Source: Candidatus Latescibacterota bacterium (lineage in GTDB: Bacteria > Latescibacterota > UBA2968). Taken from it: DNA of 64,000 nucleotides. Within the stretch, counting starts at the first letter, position 1. Each line of letters opens with the position of its first letter. The notes beneath the pieces are model-generated. The model saw only the letters and a program-made list of their open reading frames with translations, did no database searches and was not told the origin of the DNA. Location: positions 5,024,001-5,088,000 of the forward strand of contig OZ242010.1 of the NCBI GenBank assembly GCA_965204745.1, read 5' to 3'. A program made the position numbers and the translations under genes. Positions 34,322-43,785 of the stretch are shown one piece after another.

Positions 34322-35125
34322 TTAACCCACGCTCGCATTCTCCCACGTCTGATACCACTTGCGATAGCCGGTTTCCACGGGTTCGAGATGCCCGACCTCA
34401 AATTCGAGCGCGTAATCGCGGTCATAGCCCAGGCCTTCCACTTGCGTCCACACCCAGCGAAAGTCGATGATGCCATCGCCGAGCATACAGCGTTCCCATT
34501 GGCCTGCGGCGTTGTAATCGCCATCCTTGATATGGACGTGGACGATGTGATCCTTGAACACGTCAAAAGCGGCTTGGTAGTCCGTGCCCGCGGCCATGAG
34601 ATTGCAGGGTTCGTACAAAATCCCAAAGTACTTTGACCCCACTTTTTCGCACAACTCCAAGCAGACCGCTGGATCGCCCGAAATTTCTGTGCCGTGGTTT
34701 TCAATGCCCATGTAAATGCCCAGTTTTTCCGCGTATTCCGATGCCGCGCGAAACTGGGGCACGAGCGCGTCAATGGATGCGCGTTTGCTATCGCCGGGCA
34801 CAATGCGAATGGACTTTGCCCCAAACGCCTTGCCCACGTCCAGCGTCTTTTTCAATTCGTCTATCGCGGCGCGGCGGACATCCTCGGAGTCGGCGACAAA
34901 ATCCCGGCCGCAGTACGACCCGATATTTGCCAGTGCAACGCCATGCTTATCGCACGCCCGGCCCAAAGCGTCCAGGTCGTAATCCGGATCCGTGACGGAA
35001 AAATGGGGCATACGTCCCAACAGGTCAATTTTGTCAAATCCCGATTCGGCAACCACGCGAAACGTCTCGTCCAAACCTCTATTCCGCAAGGGAATACTAC
35101 ATGCGGAAATGCGCGTCACATCCAT
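34322..35125 (-). CDS. Sugar-phosphate isomerase/epimerase (xylose isomerase-like TIM barrel)
   Basis: IENH, YEPCN, HVHIKD, LGDGIID, LEFE. Confidence 0.85.
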   Translation of the reverse strand: MDVTRISACSIPLRNRGLDETFRVVAESGFDKIDLLGRMPHFSVTDPDYDLDALGRACDKHGVALANIGSYCGRDFVADSEDVRRAAIDELKKTLDVGKAFGAKSIRIVPGDSKRASIDALVPQFRAASEYAEKLGIYMGIENHGTEISGDPAVCLELCEKVGSKYFGILYEPCNLMAAGTDYQAAFDVFKDHIVHVHIKDGDYNAAGQWERCMLGDGIIDFRWVWTQVEGLGYDRDYALEFEVGHLEPVETGYRKWYQTWENASVG

Positions 35126-35784
35126 GTCAAATCTCCTTAAAAGCAAATTAACGGATGAAAATTTTAGGAACAGGCCCCCCCGTGCCTGTCCTTATAGATA
35201 ATAAACTCTCAGCGGTTAGCCCGCAACCCTGCCACCCGTGCGTGCCCTTCCCACCCCGCCGTGTCTGAATCGCGGATTAAACGGATTACGCAGATTACGC
35301 GGATTACCCCACACATCCCTACCGCCGCATCATCGTTCCCACTCCGCTATGTCCTTCGCATCCCCACCGCCATAGACCTATCCCCCCGGCCCCCTTTCCT
35401 ACAAGGAAAGGGGGAGCACATGGCTTTCTTGAAGGTTTGTATCCCTAGCTGTCCTGATGGCTTTGAGCGAATGGATCACGCCATGAAAATCCAAACCCCT
35501 CTCGCGCAATCCCCGCGCAAAACCTCTCGCCATTCCCCCTTCCTCGCAGGAAGGGGGCGAGGGGGTAGGTCCCCTCGCAAAAACGCTCACTGGTTCCCCC
35601 TTTCTCGCAGGCACAGGCGTAGCCTACAACGAAGCGAAGTGAGTAACAGGGGTTAGGGGATAGGTCCCGATAATGTAGCGTTCCTTACAACCTTAAAAAA
35701 AAATAAAACGAGGCGATTTCCTTTTTGGAGATCGCCTCATTTTATTTTTCTTTGTTTCAGGGAGAATTGCGACTCCCCTTTTGA

Positions 35785-36108
35785 TTACGTGCAGCCCGTC
35801 GGCGTTGGCAGGCCCGCGATTTTGCACGCGCCATCTGCCGGGCCCGCGGGAAACAGATCGTAAATGGTATCGATGTCTTTCTCGGTCTCTTTGCACAGCC
35901 GCCGGATCAGCGGGGCGATCTCGAATTTCAGCCAGTAATTGCGGATGTAATACACCACCTGCCAATGATCCGCGCCCATCTCATCGATGCCATCTCGCCC
36001 GGCCAGATCGCGCGCCACGGCTTCGTCCCACAACTCGGGCTGTTGGATAAACCCATCTTCATCCACCTCAATTTCCTTGCCGCCCAGCATCGCAATTTGA
36101 TATGCCAA
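35785..36108 (-). CDS. DsrC/TusE family sulfur carrier with C-X10-C C-terminal arm
   Basis: VDEDGF, HWQVVYYIRNY, LFPAGPADGACKIAGLPTPTGCT; GGAGG before TTG. Confidence 0.92.
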   Translation of the reverse strand: MAYQIAMLGGKEIEVDEDGFIQQPELWDEAVARDLAGRDGIDEMGADHWQVVYYIRNYWLKFEIAPLIRRLCKETEKDIDTIYDLFPAGPADGACKIAGLPTPTGCT

Positions 36109-37285
36109 CGCCGCCTCCTATTCGCCCGTGTCGTTTGGCAATATCGCGCAAGCCCTCAATCGCGGTCTCGACATGCGCTTCGGTATTGAAAGGGCCGAGG
36201 GAAATCCGCACCGTGCCCTTCATCTCCTGCGTGCCCAACCGCTCGTGAACCCTAGGCGCGCATTGCAACCCGGTGCGCGTTGCCACATTGAACTTTACAT
36301 CCAGCAAAATGCCCACATTATTCGCCGTCATCCCCGCGAGATTGACCGACAGCACGGGCACGCGCTGATCGATTTCTTCGGCGCAGTACAAAATGCACCC
36401 CTCAACACTGCGGAGACCCTCGACCAAGCGTGTGAACAACGCCATCTCGCGCGCGTGAATATTCTCCACGCCCTCGCGCTCAAGCCATTTTTGCGCGGAT
36501 AACAACCCCGCAATGCCCAGCAAATTGCCCGTGCCGCACTCCAATCGCCAGGGATACTCCTCCAAGTGATCCGGATATTCTGACCGCACGCCCGTGCCGC
36601 CATATCGCAACGGCGCCACAGACACCCCCTCGCGCACGTACATCCCGCCCGTACCCGTTGGCCCCATCAGGGACTTGTGCCCGGTAAAGCACAAAATATC
36701 GGCCTGCATCGCCTCCATGTCTATCGGCAACGCGCCCGCGGTCTGCGCGGCATCCACGCAAAAAATCACACCTCTCGCCCGACAAATCGCGCCGACCACA
36801 TGCACGGGTTGCACCGTCCCCAACACATTGGAAGCGTGGGGCATTACCACCAATTTCGTATTCGACTGGATCGCGTTGGCAACATCATCCGGATCCACAA
36901 CGCCATCGGCCCCAAACCCCACATGCGTCACCTCGACCCCCTCGTACTTTGTGAGATGGTAAATGGGGCGCAAAACCGAATTGTGATCCAAAAGCGTCGC
37001 GATCACATGATCCCCGGCTTGCAACGTGCCCTGAATCGCAATATTCAAAGCATCAGACGCATTATAGGTCAACACCAACCGATCCGGACTGCCCGTGGCC
37101 CCAAAGAACGCCGCCAACGCAACGCGCGCCTCGGCCACCATCGCCTCGGCCTCCCGCGCCAAATCCGTGCCACTGCGCCCGGGGTTCACCCCGTACTGCC
37201 GATAAAACGCCAGCGCGTCCTCCAGCACCCCCGGCGGCTTCGGAAACGTCGTCGCCGCATTGTCCATGTAAATTAAATTGGTCAT
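36068..37285 (-). CDS. Cysteine desulfurase (class V aminotransferase, group II-like)
   Basis: YMDNAATT, HNSV, HASNVLG, DAAQTAG, TGHKSL (PLP Lys), RTGLQCAP (catalytic Cys). Confidence 0.9.
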   Translation of the reverse strand: MTNLIYMDNAATTFPKPPGVLEDALAFYRQYGVNPGRSGTDLAREAEAMVAEARVALAAFFGATGSPDRLVLTYNASDALNIAIQGTLQAGDHVIATLLDHNSVLRPIYHLTKYEGVEVTHVGFGADGVVDPDDVANAIQSNTKLVVMPHASNVLGTVQPVHVVGAICRARGVIFCVDAAQTAGALPIDMEAMQADILCFTGHKSLMGPTGTGGMYVREGVSVAPLRYGGTGVRSEYPDHLEEYPWRLECGTGNLLGIAGLLSAQKWLEREGVENIHAREMALFTRLVEGLRSVEGCILYCAEEIDQRVPVLSVNLAGMTANNVGILLDVKFNVATRTGLQCAPRVHERLGTQEMKGTVRISLGPFNTEAHVETAIEGLRDIAKRHGRIGGGVGISNCDAGRQGN

Positions 37286-37678
37286 CGTGATACCAGATTG
37301 AATTGCTGTTATCCTGATATGATGCGATATGCTATCCGCAACGGATACTCTTGGCGTTCCGCAGTCATTCAGAGAAGCCATGGCAACCAGGCCATCGCAA
37401 AACACAATCCGATAAAGCCATCAAGCACAGCGCGTAAGGCCGTTTCGCAACCAACATCCATTATGCAACCTCCTTTGCAGGCTGGCGCGTATCGTCCTGT
37501 TACAAAAGCGATTTGCGCTGTGCAAGCCCCTCGGCGTTTGAGAGTGCCCTTTTTTGCTTCTTTTTTGGGCAAGCAAAAAAGAAGTCGCCGAAGGCATCGG
37601 AGGCAACCAACAATGCTGTAGGACCAAACGCCTTAAATGAGCAAGCAACACATTTGCCAGTTGTACCCCGCTCGCAGC

Positions 37679-39046
37679 TCAGCTCATCGGCTCTTGATCG
37701 AACACAACCGCATTATTCACCAACTCATGCACCCCTGCAATCTGCAACGCCATACCGTAATGGCGTGCAATTTCCATGAGTTGCGTGCGGCATTGCAAGC
37801 ACGAGGTCGAGACGACTTTCGCATCGGTCTCGCGCATCTGCTCGGCCTTTTTTTTGCCCGAAACCCGCATCCGAAACGCCCGCACCGAGCGCAGCGCGGA
37901 CAGCCCGCCGCCCCCACCACAGCACCATTGCGTATATCCTCCATCGGGCATCTCCCGATAATCCGCGCAGGCCGCTTGCAAAATGCGCCTCGGCTCTTCC
38001 ACAATCCCGCACCCGGCGGCGAATTGGCACGCGTCGTGATACGTCACGGCCTTGGGATTTTTGTCCGGATCCAATCTCAACTCGCCCTGCTCGATCTGCT
38101 GCGCCGTGTACTCGAACCCACTCGTAATTTCAAAGGGCAGGGTTCCCCACCAGCGGCCTTTGCTCGCCATGAACTTCATCACCCGATAGGCGTGCCCGCA
38201 CTCGCCCATCACCATCACCTCGCACCCCAATTTTTCGCATGCGTCGATATAGTGCTTGTTCTCGTACTTCATGGAAAAATTGTTCCCGGTCGTAAAGCCA
38301 AAATTCGATCCGTCAAACGCCCGCGAGCTCATCGTCCAATCCGCGCCTACGGCATGAAAAACCTTTGCCATACCCATCAGATTTTCCGCGTAAACCAGCA
38401 CATCGCCCGACGGCGGCAAAAAGAAAATCTCCGCGCCCGTGCGGTCTATGGGAATGGGAATATCCCGCCCGGTTTCCTCTTTGAGTTCCCCTTCGATAAA
38501 TCGAATCGCATCCAAAAACGCCTCGGGCGACGCGCCCTCCAAATTGCCGGTTTCAAATGAATTGTGCGTGCCCTGCGCGAGGGATGGCGGCGTAAGCCCC
38601 ATCAAATCCACCAGGGACCGCCCGACGCGCGAAATCACCGAATGATCGATCCCCACCGGACAAAACGCCGCGCACCGCCGACACGTCAAACACTCGTACA
38701 CGCGCTCGGCAAACACCTCGGCATCGTCGTTTTCAAAATCCGGCTTTGGAAAAATCGCATTCCAAAACCGCCCCCAAATGGTCGCGTACTTTTTGTACAG
38801 CCGAATCACTTGCCGCGAGCGTTCCACCGGATGCATGCGCTTATCCGGTTGCCCGTAATACACCGGGCACTCCTGCGCGCACACCCCGCATTTGGTACAC
38901 GTATCCATGTACAAGCGCAGTGCTGACGGCTCGTCCTGAATCTCGCGCACAAAGGGATCCGACTCCGCAATTCGCCGCATATACGTGCGGACCAACCCCG
39001 GCGGGATGTACTTCTTCTCGCGTTCTGTCTGCTTTGGCTTTTCCAC
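37679..39046 (-). CDS. DsrK-like (HdrD-type) Fe-S protein
   Basis: CTKCGVCAQEC and CLTCRRCAAFC ferredoxin motifs; ECGHAY; YHDAC; CCGGGGG; CLQC; GTG start after AGGGAG. Confidence 0.85.
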   Translation of the reverse strand: MEKPKQTEREKKYIPPGLVRTYMRRIAESDPFVREIQDEPSALRLYMDTCTKCGVCAQECPVYYGQPDKRMHPVERSRQVIRLYKKYATIWGRFWNAIFPKPDFENDDAEVFAERVYECLTCRRCAAFCPVGIDHSVISRVGRSLVDLMGLTPPSLAQGTHNSFETGNLEGASPEAFLDAIRFIEGELKEETGRDIPIPIDRTGAEIFFLPPSGDVLVYAENLMGMAKVFHAVGADWTMSSRAFDGSNFGFTTGNNFSMKYENKHYIDACEKLGCEVMVMGECGHAYRVMKFMASKGRWWGTLPFEITSGFEYTAQQIEQGELRLDPDKNPKAVTYHDACQFAAGCGIVEEPRRILQAACADYREMPDGGYTQWCCGGGGGLSALRSVRAFRMRVSGKKKAEQMRETDAKVVSTSCLQCRTQLMEIARHYGMALQIAGVHELVNNAVVFDQEPMS

Positions 39047-39059
39047 CGCTCGACTCCCT

Positions 39060-39818
39060 CTATTCACCTGCAAACGTATCGGATGTGCCCAAAAACGCAC
39101 GGCTCAAAAAAATCCCGCCCAAATGCAGCAAATGGGAAAACGGGATCGCGATCAGCAACGAGTATGCGGCGAGCAAGTGATAGACAAACATGGGTTGCAC
39201 CTCGAGCACCGGCGCCGTGCCGGTCAACAGCGCGGATGCGTATCGGCGCAACAGTTCGGCTGTCACCCCCTCGTCCAACAGCATGAGAAATGCTGTCACA
39301 GCAAAGCACAGGAGGATGAACTCCGCCAGATAGTCCCGAAAATCCGTAATCTCGCGCACGCGCTGAACCACGAGCCTGCGAACCCATAAATAAACGCCCG
39401 ACGCGCTCATCAACCCGCTACCTCCCAATGCCACAGCCAAACAAACCGCGTCCAACTCGGGCGGCAGTGCCACACGCACATGGGCAATGACCACCAGCAA
39501 CAGCCCCAAATGCAGGCACCAAGACCCCAACCACAACACCTTATCGCGCTTCCAAAGGCCGGTGAAAAACACAAACCCCTTGATCGTGCGTTTCCATTCC
39601 CCTCCCCGAGTGCGCGGTCGCCCGGGAAAAATGTCGATGGTCGGACGATACTGCCGCTTCCACACGCGATACACACGCCCTTTGCCGCCGGGCAACAACT
39701 TGAGTGCCGGATTGTAAAACCGCAACCACACCCAGATCCGCACGGTCAGCATAATAACATAAAAAGGACAGGCGAGATAGGGCAGGCGATACAGGATGAA
39801 GAAATCGAATGCGTCCAT
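39060..39818 (-). CDS. DsrM/NarI-like membrane diheme cytochrome b
   Basis: His pairs in LHLGLLLVVIAH and YHLL...IPFSHLLH; RRLVVQRVREIT..DY. Confidence 0.8.
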   Translation of the reverse strand: MDAFDFFILYRLPYLACPFYVIMLTVRIWVWLRFYNPALKLLPGGKGRVYRVWKRQYRPTIDIFPGRPRTRGGEWKRTIKGFVFFTGLWKRDKVLWLGSWCLHLGLLLVVIAHVRVALPPELDAVCLAVALGGSGLMSASGVYLWVRRLVVQRVREITDFRDYLAEFILLCFAVTAFLMLLDEGVTAELLRRYASALLTGTAPVLEVQPMFVYHLLAAYSLLIAIPFSHLLHLGGIFLSRAFLGTSDTFAGE

Positions 39819-39902
39819 AGATTAAGTTGCCAGCGGTCAACTTGCATTTTTTATTTTTTGGCGGATGGGGAAAGACAAAAGTCACTAGGTCGCGTTGACA
39901 TT

Positions 39903-40169
39903 TTATTTTTTTCCGATGAAAGTGGGAGCAATGCAAAAGAACGCGATTTTGGTAAGCAACCCAATCATGATTAGCCCCGCCCAAATTTTTCGGTTGATGC
40001 TCTCGATGCCGCGCTCAATCGAAGTCAGGCGCGATTCAATGCTCGCCATCCAAGTCCCCAATTGTTCAATAATGCCCTCAAGCCGTGAGATTCGGCTTTC
40101 GTGTTCAATCGTTTTTTTATCTCCTTCATCCCTTTCGATTTGGACATGTCTATTTAGTCGTACATTCAT
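39903..40169 (-). CDS. Small coiled-coil + TM protein, possibly a remnant; 3' part duplicated at 41141-41262
   Basis: ESRISRLEGIIEQL...IESRLTSIERGIESINRKIWAGLIMIGLL. Confidence 0.4.
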   Translation of the reverse strand: MNVRLNRHVQIERDEGDKKTIEHESRISRLEGIIEQLGTWMASIESRLTSIERGIESINRKIWAGLIMIGLLTKIAFFCIAPTFIGKK

Positions 40170-40403
40170 TGTCCTGATCAGTTTACCCAAAAACGCATCA
40201 AAAAACAAGGTTGAATTTCGCTATGACAGTGGCGCGGCGGGGACTGAAAGCCGAAAGCTGATTGCTGACCGCTACAAAAATCCCCATCTGAAATCGCTTG
40301 TGTGACCTCGGATGGGGCGGTGTTTTGGGGATTGTGTCTATGCGTTTTGTCGCGTACGATGAACCGAATCAAAACCCTTATCTCCAATTTCTCACCTTTT
40401 CTC

Positions 40404-40432
40404 TTGATATAGTCTTGAATATTTGGTATTTA
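40404..40432 (+). promoter_or_regulatory. Putative promoter of the DUF4160-DUF2442 pair
   Basis: TTGATA-N17-TATTTA with TGn extension. Confidence 0.5.
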
Positions 40433-40452
40433 ATTCATATTCGGAGGCAATA

Positions 40453-40689
40453 ATGCCAAGTGTCAGAAATATTCCTGGGCCATATCGGTTTTTCTTTTAT
40501 AGCTTTGATTGTAACGAACCCCAGCATGTGCATGTGAGACGAGACAAAAGAACATGCAAGTTTTGGCTTGAACCCGTTGCATTATGCAAAAATTACGGGT
40601 TTTCTCCCCATGAACTCAATGAAATTCGGCGGTTGATCCAATTGCACTTTGTGATAATTTTGGAGGCGTGGCGTGAACACTGTGAATAA
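40453..40689 (+). CDS. DUF4160 protein (putative toxin)
   Basis: YRFFFYSFDCNEPQHVHV...KFWLEPV...AWREH; GGAGG RBS. Confidence 0.85.
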   Translation: MPSVRNIPGPYRFFFYSFDCNEPQHVHVRRDKRTCKFWLEPVALCKNYGFSPHELNEIRRLIQLHFVIILEAWREHCE

Positions 40690-40939
40690 TATTGAACCTC
40701 GCATCAAAGCCATCGAAATTACTGAGGACCTGATCGTAGTTGATTTATTGGATGGCCGCACGATCAGCATACCGCTTGCTTGGTCTTGGCGACTTTCAGA
40801 TGCGACGCCCAATCAGCGTGAAAATTACGAATTTATCGGCGATGGACAGGGCGTTCACTGGCCTGATATCGATGAAGACATCAGTGCAGAAGGCATGTTG
40901 CGGGGCGTGCCAGCACGGCTTCCAAAACAGCGCGTGTGA
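40673..40939 (+). CDS. DUF2442 protein (putative antitoxin)
   Basis: DLLDGRTISIPLAWSWRL..AT..QREN...GVHWPDIDEDIS. Confidence 0.88.
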   Translation: MNTVNNIEPRIKAIEITEDLIVVDLLDGRTISIPLAWSWRLSDATPNQRENYEFIGDGQGVHWPDIDEDISAEGMLRGVPARLPKQRV

Positions 40940-41466
40940 AAATCGGTGACGAGTTTGGGTATATCAACCGAGCAGGTGAGTCATTATCAACCCGCAATTT
41001 TACGATGCTGGAAATTTTCAAAGTGATCTGTTGTGGTCTAATTGTGCATACAAAAAGCCCCATCTGAAATCGCTTGTGCGATCTCGGATGGGGCGGTGTT
41101 TTGGTGGCTGTGTTGACTAACTGGGGCGTGTGTGCAGACTCAAAAGAACGCGATTTTGGTAAGCAACCCGATCATGATGATTAGCCCCGCCCAAATTTTT
41201 CGGTTGATGCTCTCGATGCCGCGCTCAATTGAAGTCAGGCGCGATTCAATGCTCGCCATCCGAATCCCCAGTTGTCTCACCTCTCCCCTCTTGCGTTTTA
41301 CGTCTTTCCGGTGGAGCGGCGGGCCGGGGTAACTGACTACTGACCACTGACTACTGCCTTTTGCCTCTTGTATCTTCGACCAAGCACGGGGCATCGCCCC
41401 TACGATCTCACGTCTTACGTCTCACGTCTTGCCTCTTGCCTCTTGCCTCTTCCCTCTCACGCCTCA

Positions 41467-43690: not shown

Positions 43691-43785
43691 CAGTTGTCAG
43701 TTGTCAGTGGTCAGTGGTCAGTGGTCAGTGGTCAGTGGTCAGTGGTCAGTAGTCAGTGGTCAGTGGTCAGTAGTCAGTGGTCAGT
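43691..43785 (+). repeat. (CAGTGGT)n, about 13 heptamer units
   Basis: cagttgtcagttgtcagtggtcagtggt... Confidence 0.9.

Follow-up and report, generated by a model that had tools for sequence, protein, structure and literature searches.

DsrC and the membrane complex DsrMK are treated as markers, and as obligate partners, of dissimilatory sulfite reductase, DsrAB. DsrMKJOP is reported to have menadiol:DsrC-trisulfide oxidoreductase activity and to release sulfide (PMC10861901), and in the two-subunit DsrMK the DsrM subunit is predicted to oxidize quinol itself (10.64898/2026.08.25.746951). A genome that carries DsrC and DsrMK and lacks DsrAB usually counts as a false positive, according to the account given with the annotation tool DiSCo (PMC8477390), and DsrMK without DsrAB is mentioned in passing in PMC10504309. 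Here we describe a locus of this kind from a Candidatus Latescibacterota bacterium, located in a 64,000-nucleotide stretch of contig OZ242010.1 (positions 5,024,001 to 5,088,000; assembly GCA_965204745.1) that we refer to as the window. Four consecutive co-oriented genes on the minus strand, encoding a DsrM-like cytochrome b, a DsrK-like iron-sulfur protein, a cysteine desulfurase (CD) and a DsrC, fill positions 35785-39818 of the window, and all four lie where the original prediction had placed them, including the overlapping dsrC with its C-X10-C arm. The parts of the locus are known (DsrC, a DsrMK-like pair and a cysteine desulfurase), and their functional combination is undescribed: the full-text literature searched, in which subscription journals are not all covered, yielded no account of a unit of desulfurase, DsrC and DsrMK. 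The proposal that we favor, and to which we give about an even chance, is that sulfur would pass as a persulfide from the CD to Cys106 of DsrC and on to the DsrK-like subunit, where it would be reduced to H2S with menaquinol.

The genome is a single 5.48-Mb contig that is 97.65% complete. Profile searches found no dsrA or dsrB gene above the family cut-offs in the window, as had been predicted, or in the whole genome. A 740-residue assimilatory-type reductase of the NirA family was considered as a candidate DsrAB and rejected; it holds the genome's only matches, weak ones, to the dsrA and dsrB models, and its NirA score is 280 bits against a cut-off of 523. The predicted lack of dsrEFH and tusBCD likewise extends from the window to the entire genome, in which neither a PF02635 (DsrE/TusD-type) gene nor a TusA is present, whereas a genome-wide search for mnmA showed MnmA to be present. 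The DsrK-like gene is the only one of its kind in the genome, and the dsrC of the window is the sole PF04358 gene. Two futalosine-pathway PF02621 genes indicate that the organism probably synthesizes menaquinone.

To place the cassette among its relatives, we used an alignment-based scan, with one genome per species, that returned 379 DsrK-like loci, the best 80 of which were surveyed. In 25 of these 80 loci the DsrK-like protein is at least 72% identical to that of the window (group A), and in the other 55 it is 47-54% identical (group B). The order DsrM-DsrK-CD-DsrC on one strand is found in 24 of the 25 group A loci, which come from several genera; the contig of the 25th ends inside dsrK. 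The desulfurase is therefore conserved beside dsrMKC, a point on which the original prediction depended, in every one of the 24 loci that have enough flanking sequence. Within the genus of the window genome, all 19 loci have DsrM, DsrK and CD in order, and DsrC follows in 18, its position in the 19th being out of the stored flank. The genes flanking the cassette vary even within the genus, and seven loci from different genera have only the four cassette genes in common. Four loci have a nitroreductase-family gene on the upstream side (L032:6535-7176; counterparts among L043-L045), and three have a menaquinone-synthesis gene of the MqnA/D type 2-3 kb downstream (L032:12786-14006; counterparts among L043-L045). 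Neither gene is found beside the cassette of the window, and neither is common to all genera.

When 168 genomes from across the phylum were surveyed for the DsrK-like protein (E<=1e-50), the system proved to be confined to one family (f1). The DsrK-like protein occurs in 28 of 30 genomes of this family, representing five of its six genera, and in none of 137 genomes from 13 other families. A close homolog of the CD (E<=1e-60) is present in 22 of 24 f1 genomes and in 0 of 16 genomes of the sister family f2. One of the two f1 genomes in which the CD was missed (G021) also has no DsrK-like gene, and the contig of the other (G023) is cut inside dsrK, so CD presence tracks cassette presence. No dsrA was found in any of the 31 genomes of family f1 or in any of nine group A genomes, and a dsrAB partner for this DsrC elsewhere in the window genome, which would have spoken against the original prediction, was not found either. 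Outside the phylum, an Atlas look-up placed DsrK-like clusters in Bacteroidota and Ignavibacteriota.

The group B loci come from Gemmatimonadota, Zixibacteria, Elusimicrobiota, Planctomycetota, Myxococcota and Thermodesulfobacteriota. Their genes run in the order DsrC-like, DsrM, DsrK in 43 of 55 loci, and none of the 55 contains a desulfurase. The DsrC-like neighbors have a tyrosine at the position of the first arm cysteine (CysB) and an extra cysteine in the motif FPCG, and a fused double DsrC-like protein of ~215 residues that lacks the penultimate cysteine (CysA) is often encoded nearby. When dsrA was sought in the genomes behind 50 of the 80 loci, it was found above the cut-off in 37 of 41 group B genomes compared with 0 of 9 group A genomes. 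A tree of DsrK sequences (76 rows, built without 16 group A loci that were truncated or near-identical to others) places group A, one clade on a long stem (SH-aLRT 100), as the sister of group B (SH-aLRT 97). The DsrK-like protein of the cassette is a sister clade to DsrK paralogs of DsrAB-bearing bacteria and is not a canonical DsrK. Loci L053-L107 (for example, L098:6839-10036) show that DsrAB-bearing genomes of several phyla possess a second, non-canonical cluster of DsrC-like, DsrM and DsrK-like genes in which the DsrK-like protein has CxxC where the canonical protein has CxxD.

The frequency of dsrA in the genomes of the sister clade would be expected if dsrMK and dsrC were what remains of a Dsr pathway since lost, with the CD beside them by chance and sharing no function with them. 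We regard such an evolutionary leftover as barely credible. The four genes are intact and their catalytic residues are kept, even though identity falls to 72% for DsrK and to 41% for DsrM; the CD is confined to genomes that have the cassette; the flanking genes change around an unchanged set of four; and the predicted interface between CD and DsrC, described below, bears lineage-specific reciprocal changes.

The 107-residue DsrC (35785-36108, minus strand) belongs to the TusE/DsrC/DsvC fold family, scoring 110.7 bits on PF04358 (cut-off 24.9) and 105.6 bits on TIGR03342 (cut-off 53.5). Its C-terminus is GACKIAGLPTPTGCT, in which Cys95 and the penultimate Cys106 have the spacing C-X10-C, and both arm cysteines are kept in 24 of 24 cassette DsrCs. 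According to PMC3397948, the second cysteine is typical of organisms that have DsrAB, with few exceptions, whereas TusE-type proteins mostly have another residue in its place. The motif published with DiSCo is AGLPKPTG(not N)CA, in which one mismatch is tolerated, two cysteines being accepted instead (PMC8477390). Against this motif the DsrC of the window reads AGLPTPTGCT, which has T for K in the core and ends in another residue; over the whole arm it reads PADG...PTPTGCT compared with PAKG...PKPTGCV in the canonical form. Group A DsrCs are 60-68% identical to DsrCs of 105 residues that end in AGLPKPTGCV, an ending also seen in solved sulfate-reducer DsrCs. The other feature by which a DsrC is recognized, co-occurrence with DsrAB, is absent here, since 0 of the 31 family genomes have dsrA.

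Membership of a family that includes TusE raises the possibility that the cassette serves biosynthesis. The CD would load DsrC, which would act like TusE as a sulfur donor to MnmA or to a cofactor pathway, and the DsrMK-like pair would only keep the cysteines of DsrC reduced. A shortened relay of this kind is conceivable in a genome that has MnmA and no TusA or TusBCD, and the CD-DsrC contact model presented below fits it equally well. MnmA is, however, encoded in 16 of 16 genomes of the sister family and in G021, all of which are without the cassette, and therefore MnmA does not need the cassette. The protein itself scores 77.6 bits on the TusE model NF008562, whose cut-off is 191, and among solved structures it is closest to true DsrCs (1ji8, 108 bits; 1sau, 93 bits; 2v4j_C, 87 bits), the TusE-like 7syb reaching only 29 bits. 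The universal retention in the cassette of the second cysteine that TusE-type proteins have mostly replaced (PMC3397948) also argues against a biosynthetic relay, as does the membrane quinol-linked reductase, which would be an odd accessory to one. Taken together, these observations make a biosynthetic relay rather unlikely.

The CD is a class-V (type II-like) cysteine desulfurase of 405 residues (36068-37285, minus strand). It scores 285 bits on PF00266 and 405 bits on TIGR01977, the model of the EF2568 family, which is above the cut-off of 377. It falls below the cut-offs of the SufS, IscS, CsdA, NifS and SclA models; on the SufS model TIGR01979, for example, it scores 246.8 bits against a cut-off of 475.1. 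Lys204, which binds pyridoxal 5'-phosphate (PLP), and the catalytic Cys342 in the motif RTGLQCAP are invariant in the 17 rows of the alignment. The genome also encodes a SufS, an enzyme of the IscS subfamily and a NifS-like enzyme apart from the cassette, and therefore the cassette CD is an extra, dedicated enzyme. Its nearest relatives outside group A, at ~50-57% identity, are free-standing EF2568-type enzymes. The idea that a link between CD and DsrC is general to desulfurases of this type was rejected, because none of 26 EF2568-type homologs (42-56% identity, from 23 of the 41 group B genomes searched) has DsrC, DsrM or DsrK within ~1.5 kb.

The second-best NCBIfam match of the CD is the selenocysteine lyase model SclA (NF040779), at 312.6 bits. 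This match would be explained if the EF2568-type enzyme were a selenocysteine lyase and DsrC and DsrMK carried or reduced selenium. The genome contains selD (G000:C1:2158845-2159765) with one in-frame TGA, and an in-frame TGA is present in the selD of all 40 related genomes that have a match, among 41 searched; the encoded SelD presumably contains selenocysteine, and selenium is accordingly used in this lineage. We nevertheless consider a role in selenium handling very improbable. The SclA score is far below the cut-off of 525 while the EF2568 model passes; selD lies ~2.9 Mb from the cassette; and selD is present in 16 of 16 cassette-free genomes of the sister family and was not found in the cassette-bearing genome G009.

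Complex modeling supports the binding of the CD to DsrC. A model of two CD protomers and one DsrC received a score of 0.65, whereas the highest value among three controls was 0.02; this mark is attained by 58 of 80 solved complexes and by 2 of 110 pairs that are mismatched. Agreement between runs covers at least 73% of contacts, with a partner pLDDT of at least 86. On the CD side, the confident contacts are formed by residues 320-331 and 385-386, plus residues 39, 41 and 44 of the second protomer, and the contact helix leads into the Cys342 loop. On the DsrC side they are formed by residues 67-92, which lead into the cysteine arm, with residues 79-92 standing immediately ahead of it. The predicted contact pairs Lys331 of the CD with Asp80 of DsrC. 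Position 331 of the CD is Lys in 10 of 10 group A rows and Asp in 7 of 7 other rows (alignment A3), and positions 80 and 92 of DsrC are Asp in group A and mostly Lys in canonical DsrCs. If the model is right, this reciprocal charge change at the K331-D80 contact is what co-adaptation of the two partners would leave.

The DsrM-like protein (39060-39818, minus strand) is a membrane cytochrome b of 252 residues with the NarI fold and is predicted to bind two hemes. It scores 43.5 bits on PF02665, and its best NCBIfam match is DsrM (NF038037) at 51.6 bits, far below the cut-off of 300. Four histidines, H103, H113, H214 and H232, are invariant across seven cassette-type and three group B DsrM sequences. 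In the A. fulgidus study, DsrM-1, the quinol-oxidizing type found in DsrMK-only systems, is distinguished from DsrM-2 by the absence of two occluding arginines and of a loop insertion at transmembrane helix 3 (TMH3) (10.64898/2026.08.25.746951).

The DsrK-like cytoplasmic protein (37679-39100, minus strand) matches the Fer4_8 and CCG domains and scores 310.9 bits on the DsrK model NF045796, below the cut-off of 400. On this model group A proteins score 298-311 bits and group B proteins 343-351 bits, compared with 705 bits for the canonical DsrK of locus L089, which adjoins a second DsrM. The protein has two CxxCxxCxxxC motifs, a C301-x-H303 motif and a complete CX34CCGX39CxxC motif, and its cluster cysteines are kept in 9 of 9 cassette rows. 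C301-G-H303 is invariant in 9 of 9 cassette, 54 of 54 group B and 13 of 13 other rows. Cys437 stands at the position of the canonical Asp500 in 9 of 9 cassette and 54 of 54 group B rows, and Asp occurs only in the single canonical DsrK of the set; these equivalences (C329/H331 and D500) were obtained by alignment to that one sequence, from L089, and not to the A. fulgidus protein. In the A. fulgidus DsrMKJOP complex, D500 of DsrK is reported to stand for the last cysteine ligand of the Hdr cluster, and the conserved, non-ligating C329, which has H331 nearby, bore a persulfide in the map (10.64898/2026.08.25.746951). The same source suggests that the aspartate may suit the cluster to a perthiosulfenate, which is an oxygenated substrate. 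Judged by its motifs, the cassette protein is DsrK-like in architecture, with one predicted non-cubane site and the extra cysteine, and Hdr-like in its ligands, and an all-cysteine site would suit a persulfide or disulfide substrate that is not oxygenated. Thus, the naming of this gene as dsrK holds for its architecture and does not hold at the level of the equivalog cut-off or of the Asp500 ligand. No solved DsrK structure was found among the PDB entries searched, where the only match was a weak one to the CCG domain of 9ojn_A.

These properties suggest the following series of steps. The CD, as a PLP enzyme, would turn L-cysteine into alanine and hold the sulfur as a persulfide on Cys342. DsrC would dock beside the helix of the catalytic loop, and its penultimate Cys106 would accept the sulfur; in vitro, the DsrC of A. 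vinosum is reported to be persulfurated at its penultimate cysteine by IscS, a heterologous desulfurase, and cysteine (PMC3397948). The flexible arm of DsrC would then carry the sulfur to the DsrK-like subunit or, alternatively, Cys95 would resolve the persulfide to give H2S and a Cys95-Cys106 disulfide. The DsrK-like subunit would reduce the persulfide or the disulfide, yielding H2S and reduced DsrC, with electrons from menaquinol (MKH2) oxidized at the diheme DsrM-like anchor. The net reaction would be cysteine + MKH2 -> alanine + H2S + MK, where MK is menaquinone, and it could serve as a quinol-linked electron sink or as a controlled source of sulfide. The original prediction had likewise proposed that the desulfurase loads DsrC for DsrMK independently of DsrAB. 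Conservation, co-distribution and the contact model speak for that part of it, whereas we infer the transfer of sulfur, the direction of the electrons and the physiological role, including that of a sink.

A stronger form of the proposal holds that the cassette is a respiratory cysteine-sulfur reductase, in which the DsrC persulfide would be the terminal acceptor for menaquinol via the Hdr-like DsrMK, with protons released outside and energy conserved without a sulfite reductase. We think this form unlikely, if still worth entertaining. Were it true, DsrC and DsrMK would together form a quinol:protein-persulfide oxidoreductase with a general role, the Dsr pathway being only one of its uses.

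Several considerations weigh against the reduction of CD-derived sulfur by menaquinol. Menaquinol reduction of a persulfide or disulfide is unfavorable at standard potentials and would need low sulfide, coupling or another donor. Both the DsrK-like and the DsrM-like proteins fall below their equivalog cut-offs, and therefore their substrate is an extrapolation. The complex model is a prediction made from custom alignments in a 2+1 format unlike that on which the tool was calibrated, and the cysteine arm of DsrC (residues 93-107) lies outside its confident contacts. No regulator, transporter or riboswitch that would suggest a cysteine substrate is conserved beside the cassette. The score of the CD family on the selenocysteine lyase model, in a genome with selD, is a further point of this kind. 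Finally, in the window genome a repeat of 393 bp separates dsrMK from CD-dsrC.

The first of these considerations favors a pathway that runs in the opposite direction, since oxidation toward menaquinone is thermodynamically easier than reduction driven by menaquinol. The DsrMK-like pair would then oxidize a DsrC persulfide and a thiol to a trisulfide or disulfide and pass the electrons to menaquinone, so that cysteine sulfur would be an electron donor or a stored S0 carrier, as has been proposed for Dsr in sulfur oxidizers. Dsr proteins are described as running in reverse in sulfur oxidizers (PMC10504309, PMC3397948). Against such a direction, the genome has no DsrAB, DsrEFH or TusA to take a trisulfide on, so this product would have no sink, and the nearest relatives of the cassette DsrC share their AGLPKPTGCV ending with the solved DsrCs of sulfate reducers. 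We consequently judge the oxidative direction improbable and retain the reductive transfer from CD through DsrC to DsrK as the favored proposal.

The boundaries of the four genes were also considered. The longest open reading frame (ORF) of the DsrK-like gene encodes 473 residues; its probable start is a GTG at 39046, giving 455 residues, because the conservation of its relatives begins there and a sequence resembling a ribosome-binding site, GAGGGAG, precedes the GTG. The longest ORF of the CD extends to 37405. The start codon of dsrC is a TTG preceded by AGGAGG, and the CD and dsrC frames share 41 nt (36068-36108). In most relatives the cassette genes overlap or sit a few bases apart; the spacer between dsrK and the CD gene is ~10-14 bp in most same-genus loci compared with 393 bp in the window, and therefore the ancestral state is a tight operon. 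The stretch at 37286-37678, which the original prediction calls a gap, is not an ordinary intergenic spacer; it is one copy, inserted here, of an interspersed repeat for which a blastn search of the genome gave 88 matches of at least 200 bp on both strands. The insertion is particular to the window genome and a few sister genomes. No Rfam family was found at E<=1 across 35000-40600, and a scan of the locus for promoters and terminators returned sites no more often than in shuffled sequences.

Additional features were observed in and around the locus. The region downstream of dsrC (35147-35784) matches 166 stretches of the genome of at least 200 bp, on both strands, and represents a second repeat family. 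Both this family and that at 37286-37678 look like miniature inverted-repeat transposable elements. In one cassette locus (L047:6401-7980), ~1.6 kb separates dsrM from dsrK, and the stretch translated there contains 13 stops in its frame. A DUF4160/DUF2442 gene pair at 40423-40939 has a small ORF on either side (39903-40208 and 41140-41394). These two ORFs have no Pfam match and share the near-identical stretch MASIESRLTSIERGIESINRKIWAGLI, which suggests a duplication local to the gene pair. Farther along the window, at 43691-43785, the heptamer CAGTGGT is repeated 13.6 times in tandem and translates as SVVSGQW repeats in two frames.

The significance of the cassette lies in its being an intact and conserved unit of DsrC and DsrMK-like proteins for which the CD encoded with them is the only plausible source of sulfur. 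If the favored proposal is correct, the loading of DsrC can be independent of DsrAB, and bacteria of sediments and soils that do not rank as sulfidogens would have a new route from organic sulfur to sulfide. The cassette would also offer a natural test of the proposal that the exchange of a cysteine ligand for aspartate tunes DsrK for oxygenated sulfur. With only four genes, the system is small and directly testable in vitro.

Of the systems already described, DsrC with the two-subunit DsrMK (DsrM-1 type) or with DsrMKJOP is similar to the cassette in having a NarI-fold diheme subunit with four histidine ligands, an HdrD-like cytoplasmic subunit in which two [4Fe-4S] motifs are joined by a single CCG motif and a Cys-x-His motif, and a DsrC with two cysteines. 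The cassette differs in having the CD between dsrK and dsrC and in the lack of DsrAB in the 31 family genomes, and its DsrK-like protein departs from canonical DsrK in its model score (311 compared with 705 bits) and in having Cys437 for Asp500. The group B clusters share with it the CxxC ligands (54 of 54), the adjacent DsrM and DsrK, and a DsrK-like protein at 47-54% identity; they differ in that the DsrC-like gene comes first, no desulfurase is present (0/55), tyrosine replaces CysB and dsrA is found in 37 of 41 genomes. HdrDE, the membrane heterodisulfide reductase of methanogens, likewise has a cytochrome b anchor and a CCG subunit, and in both systems the last CCG ligand is a cysteine. 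Unlike HdrDE, the cassette protein has only one complete CCG motif, since of the first just Cys301 is left, as in DsrK, and its proposed substrate is the protein DsrC and not CoM-S-S-CoB. Among desulfurase systems, SufS-SufE/SufU and CsdA-CsdE resemble the cassette in the PLP lysine, the catalytic cysteine loop, a small partner encoded alongside and the docking by the catalytic loop that is predicted here. In contrast to these pairs and to the IscS-TusA relay, the putative acceptor in the cassette is a two-cysteine DsrC and not SufE, SufU, CsdE or TusA. The IscS-TusA-TusBCD-TusE-MnmA pathway is similar in that TusE is a homolog of DsrC, but the cassette has no TusA or TusBCD, and its downstream partner would be a membrane redox complex.

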